A stretch of 63,752 nt of DNA, filler included, from an uncultured Methanosarcinales archaeon (GTDB lineage Archaea > Nanobdellota > Nanobdellia > Woesearchaeales > CAYMBN01), in assembly GCA_964388715.1 (NCBI GenBank). It is 6 parts of 4 records of this genome, joined end to end, with 100 filler letters (N's around TTAATTAATTAA, not from the genome) between each part and the next. Parts side by side here need not be neighbours in the genome. Positions count along the whole stretch, not along the records: positions 51,375 to 61,919 come from CAYMBN010000005.1; 5 more parts are not named here. One strand, 5' to 3'. Under the pieces are notes generated by a model. The model was given only the letters and a program-made list of their open reading frames with translations, was not told where the DNA came from and ran no database searches. Position numbers and translations under genes: made by a program. Of this stretch, positions 7,769 to 63,752 are shown one piece after another. Numbering within the stretch: the stretch's first letter is position 1; the number at the start of each line of letters is the position of its first letter.

Positions 7769-7868
7769 NNNNNNNNNNNNNNNNNNNNNNNNNNNNNNNN
7801 NNNNNNNNNNNNTTAATTAATTAANNNNNNNNNNNNNNNNNNNNNNNNNNNNNNNNNNNNNNNNNNNN
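7769..7868. other. Artificial contig spacer
   Basis: N44-TTAATTAATTAA-N44, stops in all six frames. Confidence 0.97.
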
Positions 7869-39258: not shown

Positions 39259-39358
39259 NNNNNNNNNNNNNNNNNNNNNNNNNNNNNNNNNNNNNNNNNN
39301 NNTTAATTAATTAANNNNNNNNNNNNNNNNNNNNNNNNNNNNNNNNNNNNNNNNNNNN
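39259..39358. other. Artificial contig spacer
   Basis: N-TTAATTAATTAA-N. Confidence 0.97.
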
Positions 39359-47741: not shown

Positions 47742-47841
47742 NNNNNNNNNNNNNNNNNNNNNNNNNNNNNNNNNNNNNNNNNNNNTTAATTAATTAANNN
47801 NNNNNNNNNNNNNNNNNNNNNNNNNNNNNNNNNNNNNNNNN
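47742..47841. other. Artificial contig spacer
   Basis: N-TTAATTAATTAA-N. Confidence 0.97.
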
Positions 47842-51274: not shown

Positions 51275-51374
51275 NNNNNNNNNNNNNNNNNNNNNNNNNN
51301 NNNNNNNNNNNNNNNNNNTTAATTAATTAANNNNNNNNNNNNNNNNNNNNNNNNNNNNNNNNNNNNNNNNNNNN
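51275..51374. other. Artificial contig spacer
   Basis: N-TTAATTAATTAA-N. Confidence 0.97.
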
Positions 51375-52203
51375 TACAATATGGACACAAGATAATCAAA
51401 TCAACAAATATCCTTTCTTGATATATCATAAAGATGGAAACATAGTTGATATTGATTCAACAATCAGCTTTATTAAAGATTATAAACCAACTAGAATCAC
51501 ATTAATAGAAGATTCACCAAAAGAATTTGATTCATTATTAGCAAGTGCTGCCTCATTATATACAAATAAAATACAAAAAATAAGTCTAAATGATTATTTT
51601 TCCTATTGGAAATCATACAAAGACATAATTTACGTTGACAATGATTATAGTTTAACAATGATGGCCTCTGTTTATGCATCACTGAAAAATATTCCAATAG
51701 TAATAAAAGGAACCACAACCGATAATACTAATACATTTAATCAAAAGAATGTAATAGCAATTAATATAAAGTGCCCAGAAAACTCTGCCTCATGTTACAA
51801 AATAGAATCTTTAGTAGAACTACAAAAAGAATACATTAAACTAACTAAAACAGATAAAGCAATCCTTGTAAACCCAAGTGATATTAACATTTTAACAAAA
51901 GAAAACTTAATCCCCCTAAAAACACCAAACATAATCCAAAACTTATACTCATCAGCATCATTATCAGCACCAATACTTGCTTCTGCTAAACATGAGTTAA
52001 TCATATTCACAAATATAGATCAAACACAACAAAATCCTTATTGTGAAACAGATATTAACACTCAACAAAATTTCAACAAAATTATTATTGATATTAACAA
52101 TAACATCAATACATTGTTTAATTACAATCCAAAATACTTAACAATTTTAGGATCACCAATGGCAATACCTGATTCAGACTTTGATTTATGCATTGGTAAA
52201 TAA
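51375..52203 (+). CDS. Hypothetical surface-associated protein, 5'-truncated
   Basis: ORF from contig edge; ASVYASLKNIP, LSAPILASAKHE and YLTILGSP motifs. Confidence 0.6.
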
Positions 52204-52215
52204 GGAGGAATCAAA

Positions 52216-52872
52216 ATGAACAAATATAATTCAATAAAAAAAGCATGTGAAATCAGTGATGAAATTTTTTGTTTAATCTTAAGTAATTTCGAGAATTTTG
52301 AGACTGAAAAAGATATTGAATATTTTATTAAAAAAGAGATTAAAAGGAGAAATTATAAATTATCATTTAAACCAATTGTTGCTTCAGGAAAAAATGCTGC
52401 CGACCCACATCATAAACCCACAACTAAGAAATTAATAAAAGGTTTTTGTGTTATAGACCTTGGAGTTAAGGTTAATGATTTTTGTTCAGATTGTACACGA
52501 ACTTTTTATATAGGTAAAGCAAGTAAAAAAGAAAAGTTATTATATAAAAAAGTTTTAAGAGTACAAAAAGAATCAATAAGGAATATAAAAAACATTAAAA
52601 AACCTTGTGAACTTGATTTGAAAGCAAGAAAACAACTTGGAAAAAACCTTTTACATTCGCTTGGGCATGGTATTGGGAAAAGAGTTCATGAAGCTCCAAA
52701 AATAGGTCCAAAAAACAAAAGGTTTTTTAAGAAAAATGTATTTATTACAATTGAACCAGGATATTATGTTAAAAATAAGTTTGGAATAAGGATTGAAGAC
52801 ACTATTTATGTAGGAAATCAAATTAAAGTTTTAACAAAATTTACTAAAAATTTAAGAGAGGTGCAAATATGA
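52216..52872 (+). CDS. M24 Xaa-Pro peptidase (catalytic domain only)
   Basis: DLG..SDCTRT, HSLGHGIG..HE, TIEPG and GIRIED motifs. Confidence 0.9.
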   Translation: MNKYNSIKKACEISDEIFCLILSNFENFETEKDIEYFIKKEIKRRNYKLSFKPIVASGKNAADPHHKPTTKKLIKGFCVIDLGVKVNDFCSDCTRTFYIGKASKKEKLLYKKVLRVQKESIRNIKNIKKPCELDLKARKQLGKNLLHSLGHGIGKRVHEAPKIGPKNKRFFKKNVFITIEPGYYVKNKFGIRIEDTIYVGNQIKVLTKFTKNLREVQI

Positions 52873-54629
52873 GATATGACGAAGCAAAGTTTAATCTTGC
52901 AGTAGACAGATATCATAGAAAATTAAAGATTACAAAAGGTAAAAACATAGCAATCACTTTAAATCTAAAAGATAAATCTGCCTTTTTTTCTCTTGCGCCT
53001 TTAACAAAAGCAGCTCATTTATGTAAAAAGAGTGTTTTTATTTCAGTAGGAAGAAACTTTTGTGAACTTTTTAATGATTTGTGGTGCGTACACTGTGATG
53101 ATGACCAAAATATTGGAAGTGATAAGATAGATGCATTAGCTGATTTTATTGAAATTGTTGATGAAAAGGCTGAAGGAAAGTTTGAAAAATTATTTCACAG
53201 ACCTGAAATAATGTTAGAAGCTGGAAAAAATGGTTTCAAAGGTACAATTAATTTAGAATATAAGCACCAATGGTTCAAACCTTATAAAAGTAAAAAATTA
53301 TCAGAAACCTGTAAAAATATTCTTAAGAATTGCTATGCTTTGAAAAAAAATGAAACAATGGCAATATACTTTATAACAATGCCTAAAGAAACAAAAGAAC
53401 ATCCTCTTGAAGATTATCTTGACTCTTATGCAATATCATGGAATATGATGTCAGCTGCCAAGAAAATAGGAAATGTTGTGATGCTTTCTTATACAAAAAG
53501 AGATTCAATGCTTGACCCAATGGATAAAATAAGTGATCTTAGGTTAACTTTACTTGGATGCGATATTTGTAAAAACTCTAATGAACAAGTATTTAAGTTA
53601 TATAAACGCCTTAAAAAAATTTTAGGAATTAAAGATATTGAAATTTTTGATGCTGTATTTGCAACTAAAGGTAAAGGATATCCAGGAAAACATTTATTTG
53701 GAGAATTAATTGGTTATCCTTCATTAAATAAAAAAACAAGATGGTCAAATCCAAGTTCAATGTTATATAGATTTGATTGGTTACCACAAACTAAAATTGA
53801 CAAACGTGAACCACAAACAAGGTTAGGTATAACAGATACACTTCCAATTGATATTTTTATTGAATCATGTAATGTTAATTATAACAAATTAAGGAGGAGA
53901 AATCAACAAATTAAGGAATTGCTTGATAAAAGTGATTATATTAGGGTTATTGGTGAAGAAACTAATGGATTTAAAACTGATTTTAAGGTTTTCCTAAAAA
54001 AAGGTAAAAAAAGAAGAACAGTTAAAAGAAGTGATTCTGATGTTAGATTTAAAATAAATCCTGAATTCTACAAACAAACCAAAGTAAAAGCAGGTATGTT
54101 TGCAAACCATCCTGGTGGTGAAGCATTTGTAACACCTGAAAAATTAATTGGAAGGTTTATTGCTGATGTTGTAATTAATATTGATCAAAGTTATAGATTG
54201 AATCCAAGAAACCCTTTGATTATTGATAATAATAATAATAATAAAGAATATAAAATTGTCAAAGGGTCTAAAAATATTACTAAAAAACTAAAAGAAAGAA
54301 AAGATCAAGCATGGGAACGTTTAATGCAACAAGCTAGAAATAAAAGTTTACCCCAAGATATAATATCTCTTAAAATGAAAAATTTTAATAATATAGGTGA
54401 ATTTGCTATTAATACTAATCCTAAAGCAAGGTTATGTGATTATCTTATTGTGAATGAAAAAATAGTCAACATGTTACATATTGCACTTGGATCTGGTTAT
54501 GAAGCAGATAGGGAAACAGAGTACCATATGGATATGGTGATCGATTCTCCACGACAAAAACTAGACATTTATGGTGTTAAAGGTAAAAAAAAGATTTGGA
54601 TAATTAAAAAAGGTGAGTTTGTTGTCTGA
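52869..54629 (+). CDS. M29-like (thermophilic metalloprotease) aminopeptidase
   Basis: NHPGGEAF, IGEFAINTN, NEKI..HIALG and HMDMV motifs. Confidence 0.78.
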   Translation: MRYDEAKFNLAVDRYHRKLKITKGKNIAITLNLKDKSAFFSLAPLTKAAHLCKKSVFISVGRNFCELFNDLWCVHCDDDQNIGSDKIDALADFIEIVDEKAEGKFEKLFHRPEIMLEAGKNGFKGTINLEYKHQWFKPYKSKKLSETCKNILKNCYALKKNETMAIYFITMPKETKEHPLEDYLDSYAISWNMMSAAKKIGNVVMLSYTKRDSMLDPMDKISDLRLTLLGCDICKNSNEQVFKLYKRLKKILGIKDIEIFDAVFATKGKGYPGKHLFGELIGYPSLNKKTRWSNPSSMLYRFDWLPQTKIDKREPQTRLGITDTLPIDIFIESCNVNYNKLRRRNQQIKELLDKSDYIRVIGEETNGFKTDFKVFLKKGKKRRTVKRSDSDVRFKINPEFYKQTKVKAGMFANHPGGEAFVTPEKLIGRFIADVVINIDQSYRLNPRNPLIIDNNNNNKEYKIVKGSKNITKKLKERKDQAWERLMQQARNKSLPQDIISLKMKNFNNIGEFAINTNPKARLCDYLIVNEKIVNMLHIALGSGYEADRETEYHMDMVIDSPRQKLDIYGVKGKKKIWIIKKGEFVV

Positions 54630-55737
54630 ATTAAGTTTGTTAAAAAAATTAATTAAAGAGAATACTTCTAATCCTCCAGGTAATGAGTACAGAGTAGCCA
54701 AAATAATCACACATTTTTTCAAGAAAAATAACATTAAGTATAAAGTTTTTTCTAAAAACAAAAAAAGACCCAACATTGTAAGTTATATTGGAAAAGGAAA
54801 ACCAAGATTATTAATTCCTGCACATATGGATGTAGTACCTGCTGGTGATGGATGGAAAACAAACCCTTTCAAAGCTACTATCAAAGGAGACAAAGTATAT
54901 GGAAGAGGAAGTACAGATAATAAAGGGCAACTAGCATCTATACTTTACGCTGCAAAAGAATTAAAAAAATATGAAAAACAATTAAATGGCACTGTAATGA
55001 TAGCTGCTGTTAGTGATGAAGAAACAAGTTCTAAATATGGCATGAAACATCTTATTAACAAAAAATTAATCAAACCAGATTATGCAATCATCCCAGATAC
55101 AGGAGGATATTGTATTGAGATTGACATTGCTGAAAAAGGAGGATTATTCTTTGATATTGAATTTTTTGGTAAACAAGCACATGGATCACGACCTTGGACA
55201 GGGATAAATGCAATTGAACAGTGTGCTGAATTTATTACTAAACTAAAAAAACATAAATTTAAGTATAAAAAACATAAATTATTAAGTCCTCCAACAGTAA
55301 ATATTGGAAAGATACAAGGTGGTGCAAAACACAATATTGTTGCAGGCAAGTGTAAAGTTGGGATAGATATAAGATATTTGCCAGGAATGACCCAAAAAAA
55401 CATATTAACAGAAATTAAAAAGTTATTAAAAAATTATAAATATAAAATAATTATCTTAACAAACCATAAACCTACACAAGTTTCTCCAAATAATATAATT
55501 GTTAAGATTATAAAACATCAAGTTAAAAAAATACTAAAAAAACAAGCAAAGATAATTGGATTAGAAGGGGCAACTGTTTGTAAACAATTAATTGAAAAAG
55601 GAATTCCAGCAATAGGTTACAGTTCTGGTGATGGAAATTTAGCACATAGTTCCAATGAACATATTAAAATAAAAGAATTAAAACAATTCAAAAGAATTAT
55701 TATTGGTATTTGCTTAGAACTTATGGGGGTGAAATAA
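54613..55737 (+). CDS. M20 ArgE/DapE-family metallopeptidase
   Basis: HMDVVP, GRGSTDNKG, DEE, AHGS and AHSSNE motifs. Confidence 0.92.
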   Translation: MSLLSELSLLKKLIKENTSNPPGNEYRVAKIITHFFKKNNIKYKVFSKNKKRPNIVSYIGKGKPRLLIPAHMDVVPAGDGWKTNPFKATIKGDKVYGRGSTDNKGQLASILYAAKELKKYEKQLNGTVMIAAVSDEETSSKYGMKHLINKKLIKPDYAIIPDTGGYCIEIDIAEKGGLFFDIEFFGKQAHGSRPWTGINAIEQCAEFITKLKKHKFKYKKHKLLSPPTVNIGKIQGGAKHNIVAGKCKVGIDIRYLPGMTQKNILTEIKKLLKNYKYKIIILTNHKPTQVSPNNIIVKIIKHQVKKILKKQAKIIGLEGATVCKQLIEKGIPAIGYSSGDGNLAHSSNEHIKIKELKQFKRIIIGICLELMGVK

Positions 55738-56010
55738 ATGTCAGAACAAAGAGAAGCTTTAATGAGAATTCCTGTAGCAATTGTAACTGGAATAATACTA
55801 AGTTTTTGGTTAGCACTAATAAAAGTTTTAGCATTAGTAAATCTTTTAATTACACTATTTACAGGTAAAAGAAATACTGACCTTGCAGAATTTTGTGAAA
55901 TATTTAACACACAAGCATACATGTTTATGAGATACATAACATTTATGTCAAATAGCAGACCATTTCCTTTTAATAAACTACAAAAGAATTTGTTTAGTTT
56001 TTCAAGGTGA
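55738..56010 (+). CDS. DUF4389-like small membrane protein
   Basis: LMRIP..LFTGKR..YITFMSNSRPFPF. Confidence 0.75.
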   Translation: MSEQREALMRIPVAIVTGIILSFWLALIKVLALVNLLITLFTGKRNTDLAEFCEIFNTQAYMFMRYITFMSNSRPFPFNKLQKNLFSFSR

Positions 56011-56084
56011 ATTTTTTGTTTTTTTTTTAGATTTTTCTAAAACTTTATAAACAAATAAGGAAATTACACATTTAGGATAAATCC

Positions 56085-56178
56085 TTTTGAAGTGCAACAG
56101 TGCGATGATCCTGGTGAACACCATCTGACGCAAGGATGATGAACGGAAGTAACTTGGTAGTGCTGCATTGATTCAAAA
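56085..56178 (+). ncRNA. Candidate C/D-box small RNA
   Basis: TATA at 56044-56051; terminal stem TTTTGAA/TTCAAAA; C-like GCGATGA 56102, D' CTGA 56125, C' ATGATGA 56136, D-like TTGA 56168; locally GC-rich. Confidence 0.55.
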
Positions 56179-56207
56179 AATAATTAGAATTTAAGAAAAT
56201 ATTCTTA

Positions 56208-57347
56208 CTAACCAAACATCCCCATATAATCCTTTCCTTCCCTTTCTTCAGATTTTTTAACTTTCTTAATTCCTTCTAAAATATCATTCTTTTTTATAAT
56301 GTGCCTACTGGATCTTATTGCAAAGTAACCTGCTTCTGTACAAACAGCTTTTATTTCTGCTCCTGAAAAACCTTCCATTTTTTTGATTATATCCTTTGTA
56401 CTCAATCCTTTTTCAAGTTTCATATTTCTTGTATGTATTTTAAATATAGCTTTTCTCGCGTCTTTATCAGGGTTAGGAACAAATATTAATCTATCAAGTC
56501 TACCAGGTCTAAGGATTGCAGGATCAAGTATATCTTTTCTATTAGTACAACCAATTACTTTTACATCACCAAGTGGTTTAAAACCATCAAGTTCTGCTAA
56601 AAATTGCATAAATGTACGCTGTACTTCTCTTTCTCCAGAAGTACCTATTTCTATTCTCTTTGCAGCTAAAGCATCCAGTTCATCGATAAATACCACAGCA
56701 GGTGCTTTTTCTCTTGCAAGATTAAATACTTCTTTAACAAGCTTTGCACCCTCTCCAATAAATTTTTGTACAAGTTCAGAAGCAACAATTTCTATAAATG
56801 TTGATTTTGTTGCAGCTGCAACAGCCTTTGCTAATAATGTTTTACCAGTACCTGGCGGTCCATATAATAAAATACCTTTTGGTGGCTGTATCCCAACTTT
56901 TCTAAATAATTCAGGTTTCTTTAATGGTAATTCTACTACTTCGTGTATTTCATTTATTTGTTCTGTTAAACCTCCTATATCTTTCCAAGAAACAGTTGGT
57001 TTTTCCATTATAACAAAATTTTGAACATTAAATTTTTTAGTAGCATTTACCTTTTTTATAATATTAAGATTTTTTTGTTCAACCAAAACAGAATCTCCTG
57101 ATCTTAATTTGCCAGAATCATCTGACTTATTTACAAGAAACATATTACCATTAGGAATCCTTATCATAACTTGATTTCCTATCAATTCCCTTACTTCACA
57201 TACCATTAAAGGAACTTGTTTTATACGATTAAGTTCTTGTTTAAGATTATCAATTGTAGTCCTAAGAAGCCTATTTTCCTCTTCTAAACCAGAACTATCA
57301 GCAGTATAAGAATACATTATTTTATTTAATTCATCTTTGGTAGTCAT
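56208..57347 (-). CDS. pan: Proteasome-activating nucleotidase
   Basis: Coiled coil plus OB domain; GPPGTGKTLLAKA, FIDELD and LRPGRLDR motifs. Confidence 0.92.
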   Translation of the reverse strand: MTTKDELNKIMYSYTADSSGLEEENRLLRTTIDNLKQELNRIKQVPLMVCEVRELIGNQVMIRIPNGNMFLVNKSDDSGKLRSGDSVLVEQKNLNIIKKVNATKKFNVQNFVIMEKPTVSWKDIGGLTEQINEIHEVVELPLKKPELFRKVGIQPPKGILLYGPPGTGKTLLAKAVAAATKSTFIEIVASELVQKFIGEGAKLVKEVFNLAREKAPAVVFIDELDALAAKRIEIGTSGEREVQRTFMQFLAELDGFKPLGDVKVIGCTNRKDILDPAILRPGRLDRLIFVPNPDKDARKAIFKIHTRNMKLEKGLSTKDIIKKMEGFSGAEIKAVCTEAGYFAIRSSRHIIKKNDILEGIKKVKKSEEREGKDYMGMFG

Positions 57348-57373
57348 ATATATTAAATAACATATTTTATTTA

Positions 57374-57490
57374 AAAACTTTTTGAAAAAGTTAAGCTTTT
57401 TCCAAACGGTTTAGAACAATGGTTCTAAAACTTTTTGAAAAACCAGAGGTTTTTCTAAATGATTTAGGATAATAATCCTAAAACCTTTTG
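57374..57490. repeat. 53-bp tandem repeat of double hairpins
   Basis: AAAAC(T/C)TTTT at 57374, 57427 and 57480; each full unit has two palindromes. Confidence 0.75.
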
Positions 57491-57535
57491 TTTTACACAA
57501 ATTTTATAAATAGTTTATTGATCTTATAATATAAA

Positions 57536-58630
57536 ATGGCAATATCAACAATGCAAAAATTTCAATTAAAGAAGTTTATCAAAGAATTAGCTAGTTATAA
57601 GGCTAGACACACTGAATTTGTTACTGTTTATGTACCACAAGGTTATGAATTAGTTAAAATCCTTCAGCATTTAAATCAAGAACAAGGAACTGCAACAAAC
57701 ATTAAATCGACCTCAACAAGAAAAAATGTAATTGCAGCCTTAGAAAAGATGATTCAACATTTAAAAATTTACAAGAAAACACCACCTAATGGTTTAGCTG
57801 TTTTTTCAGGCAATGTAGCTGAAAGAGAAGGTCAACAAGATGTCCAAGTTTGGAGTATTGAACCTCCTGTACCACTAAAAACACGAATTTATAGATGTGA
57901 TAAAAATTTTCAACTTGATTTATTAATTGATATGCTTGAAGTTAAAGAGTGTTATGGTTTAATTGTTGTTGATAAAAGAGATGCAAATATTGCATTACTA
58001 AAAGGTAAAGCAATAATACCCTTATCAAAAACACATTCAGAAGTACCTGGTAAAATGAGGGCAGGTGGACAATCAGCACAACGTTTCGCAAGAAATAGGG
58101 AACTAGCTGCAAAAGCACATTTTAAAAAAGTTGCTGAATATGTTAAAAATGAATTTCTTGGAAATAAAAATTTAAAGGGAATTATTGTAGGTGGACCAGG
58201 TCCAACCAAACATGAATTTGTTGAAGGTGATTTTATTACAAATGAAGTTAAAAAAAAGATTATTGCTATTAAAGATTTAAGTTATACTGGAGAGTTTGGA
58301 TTACAAGAATTACTTGATAAAAGTCAAGATGTTCTAGCACAAGAAGAAGTTGCTGGTGAAAAAAAAATAATGAATCAATTTTTGAATTTACTTTCAAAGA
58401 AACCTGGAAAAGTTACTTATGGTGAAAAAGAAGTTATGGAAAAATTAAAGATGGGTGCTGTTGAAATTTTATTATTAAGTGAGTCACTTGATGAAAAAAC
58501 TATTGAAAATTTTGAGGAAAAGGCAAAGGAATTTAGTTCAATTGTAAAAATTATTTCAATTGAAACAAGAGAAGGAGTTCAATTAAAAGAGATTGGTAAG
58601 ATAGCTGCTATTCTACGTTATGAGGCATAA
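57536..58630 (+). CDS. prf1: Peptide chain release factor aRF1
   Basis: NIKS, YRCD and GGQS motifs. Confidence 0.96.
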   Translation: MAISTMQKFQLKKFIKELASYKARHTEFVTVYVPQGYELVKILQHLNQEQGTATNIKSTSTRKNVIAALEKMIQHLKIYKKTPPNGLAVFSGNVAEREGQQDVQVWSIEPPVPLKTRIYRCDKNFQLDLLIDMLEVKECYGLIVVDKRDANIALLKGKAIIPLSKTHSEVPGKMRAGGQSAQRFARNRELAAKAHFKKVAEYVKNEFLGNKNLKGIIVGGPGPTKHEFVEGDFITNEVKKKIIAIKDLSYTGEFGLQELLDKSQDVLAQEEVAGEKKIMNQFLNLLSKKPGKVTYGEKEVMEKLKMGAVEILLLSESLDEKTIENFEEKAKEFSSIVKIISIETREGVQLKEIGKIAAILRYEA

Positions 58631-58632
58631 TA

Positions 58633-59310
58633 ATGAGTAAGTTAGTTGAAAAAGCTTATTTAGCTTTATTTCCTGGTCAACAAGAAAAATATAACTTTTC
58701 TTTAAAATATAGTGGAAAATTTAAGGATTATAATGCAAATATTAAAAAAATACATAAAAATATTGAGGTTTGTCTTAGTAAAAAATGGAGGGGAGTAAAT
58801 AAAGAAATAATTATTGGACTTATACAAAATTTGTTATTAAAAATACTAAAACAAACCAAAGAAACAATTAATATTGATTTATATAATTCTTTTATAAAAA
58901 AATTACATATAGCAATTCCTAAAGAAAGAATTGATGCAACTTTACTAAGATCATTCACAAGAGTTAATGAAAAATATTTTTATAATATAATTGAAGTGCC
59001 TAATTTGATTTGGGGGAATTATTCTAAAAGAAAGTTAGGTAGTTATGATTTTCATACGGATACAATTAGTATAAGTAAATATTTTCAACATACAGAACTG
59101 GAATTACTTGATTATGTAATGTATCATGAATTGTTGCATAAAAAATATAAGTTTGAAAATAAAAAAGGTAAAAATTATTTTCATCATAGTAAGTTTAAGA
59201 AAGCTGAGAAAGAGTTTGAGAATAGTGAAGTGATTGAGAATAAGTTAAAATATATTGGAAGGAGAAATGTGAGAAAGAAGAAAGTTAATTTCTTGAGTAA
59301 GTGGTTTTGA
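58633..59310 (+). CDS. SprT-like zinc metalloprotease
   Basis: LGSY, YVMYHELLH and HSKF motifs. Confidence 0.8.
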   Translation: MSKLVEKAYLALFPGQQEKYNFSLKYSGKFKDYNANIKKIHKNIEVCLSKKWRGVNKEIIIGLIQNLLLKILKQTKETINIDLYNSFIKKLHIAIPKERIDATLLRSFTRVNEKYFYNIIEVPNLIWGNYSKRKLGSYDFHTDTISISKYFQHTELELLDYVMYHELLHKKYKFENKKGKNYFHHSKFKKAEKEFENSEVIENKLKYIGRRNVRKKKVNFLSKWF

Positions 59311-59381
59311 GTTTTAGTAACCTTTTTGAGGAACAAAACCTTTATATATTATAAATATTTTATCAAAAACAGGTGATTGTC

Positions 59382-59591
59382 ATGGCTTCAAAAAAATTAT
59401 TACCTTTAGCTGCAATGGAAAGAATTTTAAAATTAGCAGGTGCTGATAGAGTTTCTGATAAAGCAAAAGAAACTTTGAAGAATGTTTTAGAAGAAATTGG
59501 TGAAGATATTTCTACTCAAGCTGTTAAATTGGCACATCATGCAGGTAGAAAGACTGTTAAATCAGAAGATATTAAACTGGCTGCTAGGTGA
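59382..59591 (+). CDS. Archaeal histone
   Basis: [37 protein letters not shown]. Confidence 0.95.
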
Positions 59592-59600
59592 AGTGATTTT

Positions 59601-60386
59601 TTATATTAATTTTGAAAGGTTTTTTATATCTTTATTTGCAACATGTGTGTAAATTTGGGTTGTTCTTAGGTTTTTGTGGCCAAGAAGTTTTTGTATATGT
59701 CTTATGTCTGCACCTGCTTCAAGCAGATGAGTTGCAAATGAATGTCTTAAAGTATGTGGAGTAACTTTTTTTTCTATTCCTGCTTTTTTAGCAGTATTTT
59801 TAACAATACTTTGTATTGTACGTTTATTATATTTTTTTGAAAAATTTGAAACAAAAATTAATCCTTGTTTTTTAGGTTTTAATATATTGATAAAATCTTT
59901 TAATCTTGAATGAAGAAACAGGACTCGATCTCTACTACCTTTTGTAACCTTAAGATGTATAATCTCTCTTTCAAAATCAATATCTTGCCATTTTAGGTTG
60001 ATTAGTTCATTAAGTCTTATGCCAGTGTAATAAAGGAACATAATAATCAACCTATGTTTTAGATTGTTTACAGACTCAAACATTCTGTTGATTTCTTCTC
60101 TACTTAATACAATAGGAAGTTTTTCATTGTTTTTTGCTAGAGGAATTTCTTGATTAAAATTTTGTTTAAGAACTTTTTCATGAAAAAATTTTAATGCAAA
60201 ATAAACAGAGCGCATACTTGACCTGCTTTTATTAGTATAACTTAAAAGAAACTCTCTAGGACTTTTTTTTAATACTAAGTATTTTTTTATTACACTAATA
60301 TATGCTTTTTTAGTTTGTTTAGAATATCTTCTTAAATTAAGTTCTTCAGACAATTTTTTAAGATACAACTTGTTTTCTTCTTCCAT
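59601..60386 (-). CDS. Tyrosine recombinase (Xer/IntI-like, lacking the IntI insertion)
   Basis: [21 protein letters not shown] and TTQIY catalytic set; IntI-like RRYSxxTxxAY and LPIVLS; only 56 aa between KGSRDR and HTLRH. Confidence 0.93.
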
Positions 60387-60441
60387 ACATAAATAAAATA
60401 ACTTAAAATATATAAAAATTTCGCTTTTACTCCATCTTTAC

Positions 60442-60484
60442 CTTATTAAACGACAATTAAAACTGCGTTTAATAAGTGTTAAGT
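60442..60484 (+). other. attI-like primary recombination site
   Basis: CTTATTAAACG/CGTTTAATAAG palindrome followed directly by GTTAAGT core, just upstream of the integrase start. Confidence 0.6.
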
Positions 60485-61027
60485 TTAATTGCTGGGCTTT
60501 AACGGTTTTTTGCTTTAAATGAAACTAAAGTAATCGATAAATTTATATAAGATATGATATTAAATCTTTATTATGAACTGGAAGGAATTTTTCAACAAAG
60601 TGTATTTTATCCTATTAGCAGTTGTATTAGTTGTATCATTAATTTATAATTATACAACCGCACATATCTGTACAACAGGAAAAGGATGTGGACCTGATTG
60701 GACTATCATACCAATTCTTACTCTGGGTCATTTAATAGTATTTACTATTATTTATGGAATTATATTTTTTATCATTAGAAAATCTAAAAAATAAACTTCT
60801 TCTTTTTCTTAATGAGCAAAAAACCTAGCCCAGCAACTTCTCCGCTCCTCACTCATTTCATGAGTTGCGGTGCTCGACCACGTTGCACTCTCCTCGCTCC
60901 GCTCGTCGGGAAACTTAACAGCATTTAAATGGCTCGAGCCTTGCAGGCTCTCGACCCAAATTTTCTCCGCTCGGTTTTGTGGGTTGCCTCAAAACCTTCG
61001 CTCCGAAAACTTCATTTAAATGCCGTG
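60479..61027 (+). mobile_element. Gene cassette 1
   Basis: Starts (G)TTAAGTTT, exact complement of its own AAACTTAAC at 60911; one ORF plus an attC-like site. Confidence 0.75.
60573..60794 (+). CDS. Cassette-borne small two-TM membrane protein
   Basis: 73 aa; TATA TTTATATAA at 60542-60550. Confidence 0.75.
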   Translation: MNWKEFFNKVYFILLAVVLVVSLIYNYTTAHICTTGKGCGPDWTIIPILTLGHLIVFTIIYGIIFFIIRKSKK

Positions 61028-61033
61028 TTAAGT
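60913..61033 (+). repeat. attC-like site 1
   Basis: ACTTAAC-A-GCATTTAAATG ... CATTTAAATGC-CGT-GTTAAGT. Confidence 0.8.
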
Positions 61034-61865
61034 TCAATTTTTGACCCGCCTCATACTGAGGTTTTACCGAATTTTATTAAAGTTGTTCACTTTATTTAAA
61101 TAGATTTAAATAGAATTTTTGGTTATTACATAAAAAATAAGTCTTCAGGAGATTCTTCTTCCATTGCAGTTATAAAACCATTAATTAAATTTGAAGCAAC
61201 TGGAACCAATCCTAGAAACTCATAGTGTTTAGGAGATGCAAGACCATGCCAAACCGCACAACCATATGCTACAGCAACTGCTGCTAATGTTAATTTTTCA
61301 GTCACATTTTCCAATTTAGATTTTTCAGGACCATAGTTGCCATATCTTTTTCTCATTGTAGAATCATAATGATATAACATAAGATTGTGTACTCTCATGA
61401 CTCCTTCACTAATTCCTTTTCCTATTCTGCCAACTAATGTTGAACCAGATAAATCAGAATCTTCAATCTTTTCAGATAACTTATAACCCAAATAAGGTAC
61501 AATTTGTGTTGGTAAAGTTACAGGTAAAGTTGGTATGTACAAAAATAACATTTCTCCTATCATATTATAACTGTATTTATTTTATTTGATATAAAAACAT
61601 TTATGTACTGTAATACATAATAGCCAAAAACTACACTCACAACATAAAATTCGGCGGGCCAAAAACTTTGATTTTTTCGGCTTCGCCGACCGTTGCACTA
61701 AAAATCAATCCTTATCAGGAGAACTTAACAGCATTTAAACAGTTTCGTTTTCTTGCAGAAAACTCCACCCAAATTCTACCTACTACAGCACTCCTAGCCT
61801 GCTTCGAGTCTGTGGTCTGCCTCATCCTCGATGTCGCACCCTAAGAACTTTGTTTAAATGCCGTG
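61028..61865 (+). mobile_element. Gene cassette 2 (ORF inverted)
   Basis: Starts (G)TTAAGTTC, exact complement of its own GAACTTAAC at 61721. Confidence 0.75.
61126..61563 (-). CDS. Cassette-borne hypothetical protein
   Basis: 145 aa; minus-strand TATA-like TTTTTATATC about 25 nt upstream (61588-61597). Confidence 0.65.
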   Translation of the reverse strand: MIGEMLFLYIPTLPVTLPTQIVPYLGYKLSEKIEDSDLSGSTLVGRIGKGISEGVMRVHNLMLYHYDSTMRKRYGNYGPEKSKLENVTEKLTLAAVAVAYGCAVWHGLASPKHYEFLGLVPVASNLINGFITAMEEESPEDLFFM

Positions 61866-61871
61866 TTAGTC
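61723..61871 (+). repeat. attC-like site 2
   Basis: ACTTAAC-A-GCATTTAAACA ... TGTTTAAATGC-CGT-GTTAGTC. Confidence 0.8.
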
Positions 61872-61919
61872 TCAATTCCCAAATCGCCCTTTATGTGCTG
61901 GCAGCACAAATTTTTAAAA

Positions 61920-62019
61920 NNNNNNNNNNNNNNNNNNNNNNNNNNNNNNNNNNNNNNNNNNNNTTAATTAATTAANNNNNNNNNNNNNNNNNNNNNNNNN
62001 NNNNNNNNNNNNNNNNNNN
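61920..62019. other. Artificial contig spacer
   Basis: N-TTAATTAATTAA-N. Confidence 0.97.
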
Positions 62020-63752
62020 GATGTTTCTAAACCTGTTCCAGGATCATTTGGCTTTGCCATTATGTCAAATGAATCTCCGTAGAAAAGAGTTACTGTGTCG
62101 ACTACTAAACCTTCGACAGCCATGTTTTGGATTGTTGGTTTTGTTTTTTCATATAATTGATGAGTCAGTGTTAATATTGATTTTTCAGTTCCTTTTATCA
62201 TTGCTTCTAGTTTAAAGCTTATAGGTCCTTTTGGAGTTGCTTGTGTTGGACATTTTAATTTTATATTAAATGCTCCACTATGTTCTGCTCCTAAATTAAT
62301 GTTTCCAAATTCAGAACTCATTGCTGTTAAACTAAATTTATTTAATGGATCTTCTAATTGACATTTTGTAAGGTCATAAGGAACTCCTTTTGATGCTTCT
62401 GCAATAAATATTCTTATTCCATCAACACCAAATGTGTCTGATTCTGCTTTATTACTGCTGCTGAATTCAATTATGTATTCATCATTAACATATATCCTGT
62501 CATCATGTTTTACTTTTATATAATCACCTAATGATTTTTCAGGATTTGATGGGATTGTTGTACAAGTTTGAGTATTAGCAGGAATATTACAATTACAACT
62601 TCCTTCTGCACAATCTATTTCATTATTTCTATTATTATCTACACCATCATCACATACTTCACTTAAGCTACATGTTTCTCCTCTTGCATTTGTTTGTCCA
62701 GCACAATTAGGATCTGCACAATCTATCTTGTTATTATTATCATTATCAAAACCATCTGAACAAAGTTCTGGTGTGTTTTCTTGACCACTGCTTACACACA
62801 TTGCACCATAATATGTTCCAATCATTCCATTACAATCTTCTGTATCTTTACAATTTGTTTTGCCGTCTAAATCATTGTCATCTGCATCAGCGCATGCAAA
62901 TGCATTTATGTTTTCAACAACAGATAAACCTGGGAATCCTGTTATGCCGCATAAATTAAATCTGTGTTTACAATCTGTGTTAAATTCTCCTTGTTGTAAT
63001 TGATCTGTTGGTTTTTCATCATATCCTTCTATATCATCATGACCATCTGTTCCTGCATCAAAATCATTATTTTCTCCATCTTTACATAAATCAAATACAA
63101 ATAAATTGAATTCATAAGGTGCACATACTTTTGTAGGATCATCAGGATGCACAATACTTAAACAATCAGGATCATCACAATCAAATCCTCCAAAAGGATT
63201 TGTTTCATATTTATTTTTATTTTCATCCCAGAAATAAGTATCTAAATCATTATCTAATCCGTCGAAACATCTTCTTTTATCTTCTTCACCATCCACATTT
63301 AATAATTCTGAATCTGTTTTACAGTTTTCTGCATCTGCACAATCATAGTCAAAACAATCATGTCCAAATTTTTCTCCTGTATATGCAGATCTAAATGGTC
63401 CTTCGTCATATGGATGAGGTATTCTGTATCCCCCTAACCAGTCTCCTGCATTGGCTACTTGTCTGTCAAAGTCATTGTCTATTCCGTCTGAACACCAACC
63501 TGCACCATTGTTTTCAAATTTCGGACACGGATTAGCATCAATATCGTCGCTTGTTCCGCCTCTTCCCCAACAAGCTGAAGTATCATAACAATCAATTGAG
63601 TTTGTATCGCAGTCTCCTCCAAATGTATAGTCTGTACAATAATATGAAGTTACTAACCATGGGTTAGGGTTGGATGCATCATTATCAAATCTGTCGTCGC
63701 AACTACTTATTCCTTTAGTAGTTTTATCATAATATGAAACTCCTTGCATTGG
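62020..63752 (-). CDS. Fragment of a giant Cys/Asp-rich repeat surface protein
   Basis: Repeated CxDGxDNDxD..DCxDxxC units; open at both ends. Confidence 0.8.

Follow-up and report, generated by a model that had tools for sequence, protein, structure and literature searches.

The locus occupies positions 59601-61919, up to the end of contig C5, within the window—the whole 63,752-nt stretch of DNA analyzed here, from the genome of an uncultured archaeon of the Woesearchaeales. A tyrosine recombinase gene faces away from a palindrome with a GTTAAGT core, in the arrangement that a sequence-only reading had described, and behind the palindrome stand two complete units and a third truncated by the contig end. 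Repeat spacings agree with the unit lengths given in that reading (549 and 838 bp), and each complete unit carries a single ORF. The features are as follows:

59601-60386, minus strand: XerA-type tyrosine recombinase gene (ORF of 261 aa)
60442-60486, plus strand: attI-like docking site (palindrome arms, loop, T, and core), with arms CTTATTAAACG at 60442-60452 and CGTTTAATAAG at 60466-60476
60479-61027, plus strand: cassette 1, 549 bp (repeat spacing from G60478 to G61027)
60489-60513, plus strand: right arm of the cassette 1 outer stem, complementary to 60816-60836 and backed by the own-start folding comparison
60573-60794, plus strand: ORF of cassette 1, 73 aa, hydrophobic
60816-60836, plus strand: left arm of the cassette 1 outer stem, read from the sequence
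60837-60910, plus strand: G+C-rich upstream module of cassette 1, containing the conserved CGTTGCACT at 60881-60889
60911-61035, plus strand: attC-like site 1, 125 nt, from its fold and covariance model R1 (77.1 bits, E 3.6e-12 per genome); R'' 60911-60919, A 60920, L'' 60921-60931, L' 61013-61023, CGT bulge 61024-61026, R' 61027-61035
61028-61865, plus strand: cassette 2, 838 bp (repeat spacing from G61027 to G61865)
61038-61077 and 61643-61664: arms of the cassette 2 outer stem
61126-61563, minus strand: ORF of cassette 2, 145 aa
61721-61873, plus strand: attC-like site 2, 153 nt, from its fold and R1 (85.9 bits, E 5.5e-14 per genome); R'' 61721-61729, L'' 61731-61741, L' 61851-61861, CGT bulge 61862-61864, R' GTTAGTCTC 61865-61873
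61866-61919, plus strand: first part of cassette 3, which the contig end truncates

The recombinase matches Pfam PF00589 (2e-44), and its top-scoring family is XerA_Arch (NF040815), whose equivalog cut-off it narrowly misses (207.7 vs. 220 bits). Integron integrase profiles had been expected to match weakly or not at all, and both NCBIfam models that make up this evidence fall below their cut-offs: TIGR02249 scores 190.8 bits in two stretches (cut-off 265) and NF011946 scores 127.3 bits (cut-off 435). Motif positions and alignments to XerA, XerD, and IntI4 assign the full tyrosine-recombinase catalytic set (R, K, H-x-x-R, H/W, Y) to candidate residues R124, K149, H211, R214, H237, and Y246. 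XerA is the best solved relative: Structure 5hxy aligns in a single piece from end to end, whereas the alignment to IntI4 (VchIntIA, 2a3v) skips chain residues 173-242 opposite query residues 162-186, so that the recombinase lacks ~45 residues of the IntI-specific insertion. By alignment, the IntI-specific additional domain near patch III is absent, in keeping with the earlier view that this enzyme is no canonical IntI. The interval from the catalytic lysine to HxxR had been put at 56 residues; it is 61 (K149 to H211, of HTLR), and the missing insertion argued from it still stands. None of the 151 genomes of a phylum sample exceeds the TIGR02249 cut-off, and the matches there split at profile positions ~181 and 237, skipping the insertion. 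A second recombinase of this genome lies on another contig (C21).

The docking site comprises two 11-nt arms separated by a 13-nt loop and followed by a T and the core GTTAAGTTT (60478-60486), which lies outside the palindrome. It folds at −10 kcal/mol (z −3.1), and crossover would fall within or beside its invariant GTTA (60478-60481). This layout differs from dif, given in PMC8371274 as two 11-nt inverted repeats with a 6-nt spacer in single copy; moreover, L'-spacer-R' sites related to the docking site reappear behind every cassette. The palindrome-plus-GTTA arrangement is also found upstream of recombinase homologues in 14 genomes of an order sample, and the docking site is near-identical in three related loci (L076, L079, and L081).

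The sites of both units share the pattern AAC-A-GCATTTAAA...TTTAAATGC-CGT-GTT, as originally noted. Each site comprises a 9-bp R stem, one A:T pair with a bulge of 2-3 nt next to R', a 12-bp covarying L stem centered on TTAA, and a three-way junction in which CCAAAT is conserved; in site 1 the junction, between L'' and L', carries ACCCAAAT. The cores read nnnnnTAAC and GTTAnnnnn, with TAAC/GTTA nearly invariant in 36 sites. Those of site 1 (ACTTAAC and GTTAAGT) agree with the integron consensus RYYYAAC/GTTRRRY, and the site 2 R' (GTTAGTC) deviates from GTTRRRY at one position. In the circular form, the site adds an outer stem of 20-25 bp and, together with the upstream module, reaches ~250 nt. 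Across an alignment of 12 sites from five genomes, 97.1% of cells are paired (38-44% in slid controls) and 8 of the 12 L-stem pairs carry two-sided changes; given this covariation, it is pairing rather than sequence that is conserved. No counterpart of the two extrahelical bases of attC, nor of its unpaired central spacer, was seen in these sites.

Fold z-scores as DNA are −5.2 (top strand) and −6.0 (bottom strand) for site 1 and weaker for site 2 (−2.3 and −3.0), a modest gain over shuffles. The region 60816-60910 has a GC fraction of 0.42-0.58 against ~0.2-0.3 nearby, and its CGTTGCACT has a second copy at 61691-61699 and recurs in relatives' sites. With up to two mismatches allowed, a search of the 1,300,152-base assembly returned two copies of TTTAAATGCCGTGTTA, each of them in the array, and no copy of the reversed control. 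An Rfam scan of 59300-61920 (E up to 10) returned a lone match to STnc410 (E 4.2; 15.1 bits vs. a gathering score of 50), taken as chance. A simple hairpin-plus-core finder recovered site 1 only and nothing convincing in relatives, because it demanded R''/R' pairing within the array; it was replaced by motif reading and by R1, a covariance model built from 12 sites.

Cassette ends pair with the start of their own cassette rather than with the adjacent core. The core at 60478, GTTAAGTTT, is complementary to AAACTTAAC at 60911, the start and end of cassette 1, and GTTAAGTTC at 61027 is complementary to GAACTTAAC at 61721 in cassette 2, where the following start reads GTTAGTCTC. Among 19 adjacent pairs, R'' is complementary over at least 7 contiguous nt to the preceding site's R' in 15; its match to the in-array R' is mostly just the invariant 4-5 nt. 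We joined each cassette end in silico to each candidate start and ranked the starts by gain in folding energy. In 18 of 19 cassettes, no candidate improved the fold more than the cassette's own start (by −6.8 to −28.3 kcal/mol across the 18), compared with −0.3 to −8.0 kcal/mol for the in-array neighbor. Seven further pairs, first set aside or not yet included, placed the own start first in four, bringing the total to 22 of 26 cassettes across 10 genomes. Both window cassettes rank their own start first of 29 candidates, with gains of −21.2 kcal/mol (cassette 1) and −21.4 kcal/mol (cassette 2). Two of the four cassette ends whose presumed own start did not come first span 3.7 and 5.4 kb, and these cassettes may hold undetected sites. 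The own-start complementarity first noticed in two cassettes extends to relatives, and the cassette boundaries and circular permutation can be read directly from the sequence.

R1 matches occur in 19 of the 41 genomes of the order sample and in 64 of the 151 genomes of the phylum sample. Within this genome, both copies lie in the array and none elsewhere in 1.3 Mb, as opposed to a genome-wide scatter. In 80 loci with close recombinase relatives, all 39 R1 matches (in 22 loci) are on the strand opposite to the gene and upstream of it, so that orthologues do flank such arrays. Among the matches listed, 23 genomes (24 loci) have sites immediately upstream of a recombinase homologue that points away from them, with no other geometry. 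The close relatives come from records labeled Woese-, Pace-, Aenigmat-, Iain-, and Micrarchaeota. Single site copies distant from any recombinase match were also observed in some genomes.

An unrooted tree of 45 rows, from which four ORFs shorter than 240 aa were left out, separates 14 docking-site genes from 7 dif-adjacent genes by a branch with 97/95 support, setting the recombinase apart from dif-adjacent XerA paralogues. One exception (G015) sits on the dif side with an R1 match ~400 nt upstream (E 1e-4), and several site-adjacent homologues of just 39-41% identity fall outside the tree set. Six genomes of the order sample hold both a site-associated gene and a dif-side paralogue. In four genomes the site-associated type is the sole Xer-like gene found, and for this reason the recombinase may not be dedicated to cassettes.

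The triloops of the sites bear on the choice of strand that folds. Perfect-stem triloop hairpins number 69 across 36 sites: The loop of 40 is TNC when read along the top strand, hence GNA along the bottom one, and a single hairpin has GNA on the top strand. As reported in PMC3201870 and PMC13037366, d(GNA) triloops and GCGNAGC mini-hairpins are very stable in DNA, and the bias of 40 to 1 suggests folded single-stranded DNA. Wobble cells are a weak guide to the same choice: There are 32 top-strand G:T cells against 12 A:C cells, and one column dominates, with 27 of the G:T cells in one pair. We lean slightly toward the bottom strand as the one that folds as single-stranded DNA and serves as substrate.

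Cassette content varies, which favors the earlier reading. The cassette 2 protein was found in this genome alone among 401 genomes of the phylum sample, an absence that has no bearing on its origin. A unitig running exactly from 60478, the start of the docking core, to 60908 recurs in four metagenome runs from two studies. In one of these (X5), the unitig is preceded by 25 different letters, and an equally long 456-letter record in another (X3) suggests the same; the left neighbor of cassette 1 differs in two runs. Circles cannot appear in these data, which are Logan contigs, and the run that covers the stretch best may come from the very sample behind the assembly. In two runs (X1 and X2), a contig leads from 61919 back to 61664, with 31 letters on its shorter side, so that the sequence beyond 61919 would repeat the upstream module and thereby explain the assembly break. 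Joints at 61012>61691 and 61744>61829 have just 21-22 letters on the shorter side and are given no weight. Most of the recombinase gene is without cover in X1 and X2, a gap from which we draw no inference. Among relatives, 32 of 76 untruncated loci have their contig end <500 nt upstream of the gene, and contigs end inside or at the GTT core in five loci (including the three with the near-identical docking site) as well as in three genomes.

Neither window ORF matched a Pfam or NCBIfam family. Cargo in relatives includes PIN, Fic/DOC, AbiEii-like AAA_21, and SIR2-like proteins, methyltransferases, hydrolases, LemA, and many proteins without a family—a content that is typical of cassettes. Units measure 0.3-4 kb and carry one or two cargo genes, with replication, phage, and morphogenesis genes absent. 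In integrons, most cassettes lack a promoter of their own and share one orientation behind a common promoter, Pc. Here the ORFs point both ways: one in each direction in the window (cassette 1 plus, cassette 2 minus), and 29 of 53 along the array against 24 of 53 opposite in eight arrays of relatives.

Our preferred reading, to which we assign a probability of about 0.8, is that the array is an integron-like gene-cassette platform with a XerA-type tyrosine recombinase as its integrase. Drawn from sequence comparison, the enzyme class, site family, geometry, and own-start pairing all lend support to this reading, first put forward as a parallel cassette-capture system. The recombinase (59601-60386), as the probable catalyst, would join the resident docking site (60442-60486, beside the gene's putative promoter) with a cassette's folded site, exchanging strands within or beside the invariant GTTA. 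Exchange at that point would account for the form of each cassette, which opens with the right half of its site and closes with the left part, just as integron cassettes do. The array would grow and be reordered as cassettes insert at the docking site and are excised between pairs of cassette sites. By analogy with integrons, the single-strand exchange would be resolved by replication.

Several alternatives were weighed against this platform reading. One keeps both platform and enzyme and lets duplex core sites (L' arm, spacer, R' arm) recombine, leaving the R''-L'' half and the hairpins for protein binding, cruciform, or transcript structure. Duplex sites are the usual substrate of Xer-type enzymes, the docking site has a duplex L'-spacer-R' layout resembling the 3' half of cassette sites, and the recombinase lacks the domain that reportedly contacts the extrahelical bases of folded attC. 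We nevertheless regard duplex recombination as unlikely: The L stem keeps its pairing rather than its sequence, bottom-strand triloops are biased 40 to 1 toward the GNA type, which is stable in DNA, and end-start pairing reaches past the core into the 20-25 bp outer stems, which a duplex core site would not need. That the recombinase is simply the cell's dimer resolvase XerA and the docking site its dif, with cassettes exploiting Xer in the manner of integrative mobile elements (IMEX) and no dedicated integrase, strikes us as distinctly improbable. IMEX elements such as CTXphi integrate at dif through the host XerCD with a folded single-stranded attP, and the arrays share with them a Xer-type enzyme on a hairpin of two inverted half-sites and a tandem pile-up at one chromosomal site. 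XerA_Arch is the top family of the recombinase and XerA its nearest solved structure. Seven loci of relatives carry a canonical dif-like palindrome in the equivalent place, directly upstream of XerA paralogues; several genomes have the site-associated type alone; and a crude, narrow palindrome search of this 95.75% complete genome yielded one non-dif-looking match and no canonical dif. Against a resolvase stand the six genomes holding both genes across the 97/95 branch, the second recombinase of this genome, and a docking site whose arms lie 13 nt apart with the crossover core outside the palindrome. Moreover, an IMEX element is a phage or island that brings genes for its own replication or morphogenesis, whereas the units here are small cassettes with one or two cargo genes, and several genomes hold a separate associated paralogue. 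Even if the enzyme were the resolvase, the system would still be integron-like in behavior.

That the G+C-rich elements are structured RNAs or MITE/REP-like intergenic repeats, and take no part in cassette recombination, is already largely refuted. They are structured islands in an A+T-rich genome, and the lone copies far from recombinase matches would fit such an origin. Set against this are the lack of any Rfam family, the presence of just two copies in the genome, both in the array, and the constant position and orientation relative to the recombinase gene (39 of 39). Furthermore, each element pairs with the start of its own unit, across a gene, which an inserted hairpin cannot explain.

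Nor does an ordinary integron with canonical IntI and canonical attC, as reported in Archaea, account for the locus except with very low probability. As far as Ghaly et al. 2022 (PMC9668308) describe integrons, including archaeal ones and clusters of attC sites without an integrase (CALINs), some of these in Nanoarchaeota, the locus shares their divergent recombinase gene, docking site, and array of mostly single-gene cassettes. It likewise shares nnnTAAC and GTTAnnn cores in imperfect-hairpin sites, the own-start core complementarity that marks circular cassettes recombined in GTT, and accessory, toxin-antitoxin-like, and orphan cargo. A bottom-strand hairpin loop of GAA type, present here, also occurs in the attCaadA7 primer (Data S10, PMC9668308). 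The enzyme, however, scores as XerA and lacks the IntI-specific insertion, with both IntI models under cut-off. At the R-L junction, the sites have an A:T pair and a 2-3 nt bulge in place of the 5-nt unpaired spacer with extrahelical bases found in attC, including nine archaeal attCs given in the supplement of PMC9668308 (of 539). None of these nine contains CCAAAT or TTCAAT. Inside, where attC has a free, variable loop, the sites form a conserved three-way junction (CCAAAT, TTGCA loops); an upstream module and outer stem are additional; the docking site is a hairpin-forming palindrome; and ORFs run in both directions, unlike those of most integrons.

Archaeal XerA/dif (PDB 5hxy, 4a8e; PMC8371274, as far as it describes the system) provides the nearest protein family and fold class, also with a single recombinase, and the paralogous XerA genes of this order likewise have a site directly upstream. 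It differs in arm spacing, core position, the absence of further sites behind each cassette, and the side of the tree on which its recombinases fall. The pdif modules of Acinetobacter plasmids resemble the array as small gene modules bounded by Xer-type sites; as outlined in 10.1101/2024.04.09.588662, these are duplex XerC/D sites in inverted pairs on plasmids, unlike the folded hairpins and one-directional array beside a recombinase gene seen here. A literature search, covering few subscription journals, returned no account of archaeal cassette arrays served by a XerA-type recombinase.

On the platform reading, this widespread system, which bears the full sequence signature of cassette capture, shows that a plain Xer-type enzyme can support integron-style gene collecting, a point of direct relevance to the origin of integrons from Xer recombinases. 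Integron integrases are defined by their extra domain, described as essential for integron recombination. MacDonald and colleagues, whose paper is cited in PMC8138268, are said to have found in 2006 that this domain grips the flipped-out (extrahelical) bases of folded attC. We give even odds to a second integron lineage without the IntI domain, in which a XerA-derived integrase would act on folded bottom-strand sites that have no extrahelical bases and instead present a bulge, a three-way junction, and GNA triloops. The system may represent the ancestral Xer-like state behind bacterial IntI or an independent invention. Where a genome has no other Xer gene, its chromosome dimers may be resolved by this enzyme at the docking site too. 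The mechanism lends itself to direct tests with oligonucleotides and one small protein, given how compact and highly structured the sites are.

The finding also offers an explanation of why archaeal surveys by IntI profile met attC clusters and almost no integrases: One such survey gives 6 IntIs against 539 attCs (PMC9668308). Reports of attC clusters without an integrase in Nanoarchaeota could find their explanation in such a second lineage. With sites in 64 of 151 genomes and canonical IntI in none, it would be the main cassette platform of an entire class within the DPANN archaea. The system suggests a principal way in which DPANN archaea, whose small genomes rely on accessory genes, acquire new genes.

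Positions 51375–61919 of the window are the final 10.5 kb of contig C5 of the source genome (G000), so the array sits at a contig end. The window joins pieces of contigs C2, C4, C5, and C29 with N runs at 7769–7868, 39259–39358, 47742–47841, 51275–51374, and 61920–62019; the last of these, at least, includes a TTAATTAATTAA linker, and sequences flanking any N run are not genomic neighbors. Reading away from the recombinase start, an A+T-rich stretch leads to a palindrome, a T, a core, two complete units, and 55 bases of a third. The sequence-only reading had described this layout, and the ORF, palindrome, core, and 549- and 838-bp units are all present at 59601–61919.

Features of the recombinase–cassette locus (palindrome arms and core read from the sequence; last line on another contig)
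59601–60386, minus strand: recombinase ORF, 261 aa
60442–60452: first palindrome arm of the attI-like docking site, CTTATTAAACG
60466–60476: second palindrome arm of the docking site, CGTTTAATAAG
60478–60486: docking-site core, GTTAAGTTT, preceded by T
60479–61027: cassette 1, 549 bp, with one ORF (73 aa, plus strand)
60911–61035: attC-like site 1
61028–61865: cassette 2, 838 bp, with one ORF (145 aa, minus strand)
61721–61873: attC-like site 2
681–1508 of G000 contig C21: second recombinase (locus L004), 275 aa

Each unit is closed by a G+C-rich block (GC 0.40–0.58 vs. about 0.2–0.3 nearby) containing AAC-A-GCATTTAAA...TTTAAATGC-CGT-GTT. The 16-nt right end of the site, searched with up to two mismatches, has two copies in the 1.3-Mb assembly, both at the array; the reversed control has none. 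Folded as single-stranded DNA, site 1 reaches −27.2 kcal/mol on the top strand (z −5.2) and −31.0 on the bottom (z −6.0), site 2 at −17.5 (z −2.3) and −21.6 (z −3.0), and the docking-site hairpin at about −10 (z −3.1). Searches of Pfam and NCBIfam gave no family for either cassette ORF of the window, and Rfam gave none for the array region. On the minus strand, TTTTTATATA at 60400–60425 lies between the palindrome and the recombinase start codon, at the position of an archaeal TATA box; as a promoter element it would place the docking-site palindrome just upstream of the recombinase's own promoter, which suggests that the gene could be autoregulated. At 61968–63752 (minus strand), contig C29 has an ORF longer than 590 aa whose product is highly enriched in Cys, Asp, Asn, and Gly and carries D-x-D-x-D-G-like and CxxxC repeats; this is probably a large secreted calcium-binding or adhesin-like protein, on another contig and unrelated to the array.

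The recombinase resembles XerA more closely than integron integrases. It matches Pfam Phage_integrase (2e-44), and its best NCBIfam family is XerA_Arch (NF040815; 207.7 bits, slightly below the cut-off of 220); the integron-integrase models TIGR02249 (190.8 bits over two stretches, cut-off 265) and NF011946 (127.3 bits, cut-off 435) score well below theirs. Thermoplasma XerA (5hxy) aligns in a single piece, query 4–255 with chain 38–307. The Vibrio integron integrase (2a3v) aligns in two, query 9–162 with chain 6–173 and query 186–253 with chain 242–309, leaving 24 residues of the query opposite 69 of IntI4. Candidate catalytic residues are R124, K149, H211, R214, H237, and Y246. The 56 residues first counted between the catalytic Lys and HxxR measure 61, and the absence of the IntI insertion stands.

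The cassette boundaries and their permutation are visible in the complementarity of the sites. Integron crossover falls in G/TT, so a cassette starts with the right half of its own site, and its R'' arm (the left partner of R') complements its own start, not its neighbor's. Arrays also follow the docking site in four related genomes (G017, G006, G002, and G018). At least seven contiguous bases match between R'' and the previous site's R' in 15 of 19 adjacent pairs; R'' and its own in-array R' mostly share just the invariant 4–5 bases. The match between the docking-site core and R'' of the first cassette is 9 nt long in G000, G017, G002, and G018, 8 nt in G029, and 7 nt in G008. Complementarity in the window runs beyond the core that the sequence-only reading had noted, joining 60489–60513 with 60816–60836 and 61038–61077 with 61643–61664; the whole site of a circular cassette would thus be a structure of ~250 nt closed by an outer stem.

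A blind scripted joining test quantified this pattern. Each cassette's last 260 nt was joined in turn to 29 candidate starts (the initial 70 nt of each), and every joint was scored by how much the folding energy improved. For 18 of 19 cassettes the best candidate was the cassette's own start, with gains of −6.8 to −28.3 kcal/mol in those 18 (−21.2 for cassette 1 and −21.4 for cassette 2), whereas the in-array neighbor's start gained only −0.3 to −8.0 kcal/mol. Seven further pairs had initially been left out or not yet included, and the own start came first in four of them; the three failing pairs include intervals of 3.7 and 5.4 kb in G020, which may hide undetected sites.

An alignment of twelve sites, drawn from five genomes, reveals a common frame. 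Its 5' half comprises nnnnnTAAC, A, a 12-nt L'' arm around TTAA, a hairpin with a CTTGCAG loop, and (C)CCAAAT; its 3' half comprises a second hairpin, ACTTC, the L' arm, a spacer (GAT, ATAT, or CGT), and GTTAnnnnn. Pairing holds in 97.1% of 204 cells of this alignment, and both sides of the L stem are changed in 8 of 12 pairs. The covariation score is 0.498 vs. 0.150 in shuffles, with 0 of 500 shuffles as high, and sliding the partner by 1–3 columns lowers pairing to 38–44%. It is therefore the pairing that is conserved, not the letters. In a related genome (locus L070, 4043–4468 of G028:C3), two sites 300 bp apart carry ATC/GAT in place of AAC/GTT on both sides, a compensatory change in an otherwise invariant core.

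The fold differs from that of published attC sites. Here the R and L stems are joined by one A:T pair and a 2–3-nt bulge, whereas nine published archaeal attCs and attCaadA7 have a 5-nt unpaired spacer; the interior is a conserved three-way junction where published attCs have a free loop. No counterpart of the attC extrahelical bases was seen in the aligned sites. A CGTTGCACT hairpin is conserved in the upstream module (the G+C-rich block before R''), 30 nt before R'', at 60881–60889 and 61691–61699 and also in G017 and G006 sites. It often lies, together with a CGGCTTCGCCG hairpin, within a covarying stem (e.g., GATTTTT...AAAAATC), and it may bind an accessory protein or act as a hairpin for priming.

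The triloops of these sites show a strand bias. Among 69 perfect-stem triloop hairpins in 36 sites and their upstream modules, 40 have a T-N-C loop on the top strand (18 C(TTC)G, 16 T(TGC)A, 5 C(TAC)G, and 1 T(TTC)A) and hence a G-N-A loop on the bottom; just one has G-N-A on the top. According to the abstracts of PMC3201870 and PMC13037366, d(GNA) triloops and mini-hairpins of the GCGNAGC type have very high stability in DNA. A loop of the same kind, GCCGCTTCGCGGC, occurs in the primer for attCaadA7 that PMC9668308 gives in Data S10. Strand bias, GNA stability in DNA, and this likeness favor the bottom DNA strand as the one that would fold, as in integrons. The wobble count is a weak guide to the strand, with 32 G:T cells on the top strand, of which 27 share a single column, vs. 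12 A:C cells.

Homologues of the recombinase (E 1e-20 or better) occur in 32 of 40 other genomes of the same order. Upstream of the best of them the docking site is conserved, as a TTAAxCG...CGxTTAA palindrome followed by TA, 2–3 bases, and GTTAnnnnCAAT; it was found in 14 genomes of the order sample, in three of which (G033, G037, and G019) the contig stops at or just past its GTT. Seven homologues (L018, L019, L045, L047, L049, L051, and L031) instead have a textbook dif-like palindrome immediately upstream, such as TTCGTATAAT-atac-ATTATACGAA (G034) or AGTTCGCATA-atgtatat-TAGGCGAACT (G031). We take the palindromes upstream of XerA paralogues in this order to be near the bacterial dif consensus, and their placement directly upstream of the gene recalls bacterial xerH/difH and xerS/difSL.

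An unrooted tree of 45 homologues (four ORFs below 240 aa left out) separates the two kinds of gene. With labels taken from a motif search and inspection by eye, which left 24 of the 45 rows unlabeled, a single 97/95 branch parts the 14 docking-site genes from the seven dif-adjacent genes, and six genomes have one gene on each side. The exception is L024 of G015, which falls on the dif side yet has a site match ~400 nt upstream. The source assembly has one other tyrosine recombinase, the C21 protein (32% identity), one of six members of a distinct clade on the dif side. Upstream of it lies an imperfect palindrome, AGTGGACATG...AATGTCCAGT, and directly downstream is the gene for a radical-SAM protein with an apparent C-terminal helix-hairpin-helix; this recombinase may be the true dimer resolvase of G000. 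In a single-contig genome, a 55% identical homologue (G059:C1:217250–217942) is a decayed copy, given its five in-frame stops, and an intact paralogue is present in the same genome.

Gene and site are linked across the phylum. The covariance model built from the 12 sites (R1) matches 19 of 41 genomes of the order sample (46 matches, E 1e-3 or better) and 64 of 151 high-quality phylum genomes, 11 of them from other orders of the class; 95 of the 151 have a recombinase homologue at E 1e-40 or better. TIGR02249 exceeded its cut-off in 0 of 151 genomes and also in 0 of 14 control genomes, which thus give no positive control, and its matches in the 151 split at profile positions ~181 and 237, around the IntI insertion. 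Among the matches listed, sites lie directly upstream of a homologue on the opposite strand at 24 loci in 23 genomes, and no other site–gene geometry was found among them (read by eye; 24 further site matches lay outside this set).

A scan of one genome per species gave 80 loci with relatives 41–70% identical, taken with up to 6 kb on either side. R1 has 39 matches in 22 of these loci, and 39 of 39 lie upstream of the gene on the opposite strand. Record titles span Woesearchaeota, Pacearchaeota, Aenigmatarchaeota, Nanoarchaeota, Iainarchaeum, Diapherotrites, and Micrarchaeota. Several loci (L076, L081–L084, L088, L094, and others) come from assemblies titled "uncultured Methanosarcinales" or "Thermoplasmatales archaeon," titles that may be unreliable because the nearest relatives are titled Woese-, Pace-, or Aenigmatarchaeota. 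Of 76 loci with an untruncated gene, 32 have under 500 nt of contig upstream of it, and in L076, L079, L081, L099, and L122 the contig breaks off inside or at the GTT core. Assembly breaks fall where populations differ.

Parts of the window occur in eight public metagenome runs, which come from two studies, and the run with the best cover may be the source sample; four were aligned (X1, X2, X3, and X5) as Logan contigs, which show neither circles nor strands. All four contain a unitig at exactly 60478–60908 (depths 24, 25.2, 8.3, and 8.2), the body of cassette 1 from the core G to just before R''. In X5, 25 other letters precede 60478, indicating a different left neighbor for cassette 1 with the break at the predicted point, and an X3 record of equal length (456 letters) points the same way. 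A 927-letter contig in X1, X2, and X3 matches 61026–61124 and then 61626 onward, with, by arithmetic, ~790 unmatched letters between the matched ends vs. 501 in the window; the same cassette 2 ends seem to carry other cargo there, although the contig is possibly a diverged allele of cassette 2. A contig in X1 and X2 runs from 61919 back to 61664, so the sequence past the contig end repeats the upstream module, which explains why assembly stopped.

Cargo in relatives' arrays includes LemA, a VIT-family protein, GlpM, an AAA_23 and metallophosphoesterase pair within one 4-kb unit, an AbiEii-like AAA_21 ATPase, SurE, TrmB, methyltransferases, hydrolases, Fic/DOC, PIN, a weak SIR2-like match, and many proteins without a family. 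Among 401 phylum-sample genomes, only G000 yielded the 145-aa cassette 2 protein. Unlike in most integrons, ORF orientation is mixed (29 same and 24 opposite; n = 53), and certain units, of 261 bp in G020 and 300 bp in G028 (at L070), leave no room for a gene.

The feature is real. What might compete with a cassette platform is a plain XerA acting at dif, with the units as small Xer-exploiting elements, and the genomes that have only this type of recombinase would fit that account. Four observations weaken it: six genomes carry a dif-adjacent paralogue as a separate gene, G000 itself has another recombinase, the docking-site architecture is not that of dif, and the cargo is cassette-like. A cassette role and a dimer-resolution (XerA/dif) role may also coexist. 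The proposal of an integron-like array beside a non-canonical IntI is supported by the missing IntI insertion, the cassette signature, and the gene–site linkage.

In the mechanism that we propose for this cassette platform, the XerA-type enzyme would bind the L and R arms at the docking site and also those of a cassette site in its folded form, where the R''/R' and L''/L' duplexes would mimic both arms of a Xer core site and the bulge would mark the central region. One strand would be exchanged within or beside GTTA, and replication would resolve the junction. Cassettes would be inserted at the docking site and excised by recombination between a pair of cassette sites. The sequences themselves show the cassette boundaries, their permutation, the covariation, the strand bias, and the gene–site linkage; this enzyme as the catalyst, a single-stranded substrate, and the resolution step are what we infer from them.

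Archaeal integrons are already known: PMC9668308 reports 539 attCs and six IntIs from 75 genomes. Every one of the six has the IntI-specific domain, and the attCs mostly sit in clusters that lack an integrase, among them those of Nanoarchaeota genomes with 2–4 attCs and no IntI. The nine of those 539 attCs whose sequences are given there, and were compared, are canonical and without the motifs of the present site class. Our literature search returned no account of cassette arrays served by a XerA-type enzyme. Judged on sequence, the system is an integron in layout and probably in function, and it lies outside the IntI-defined family.
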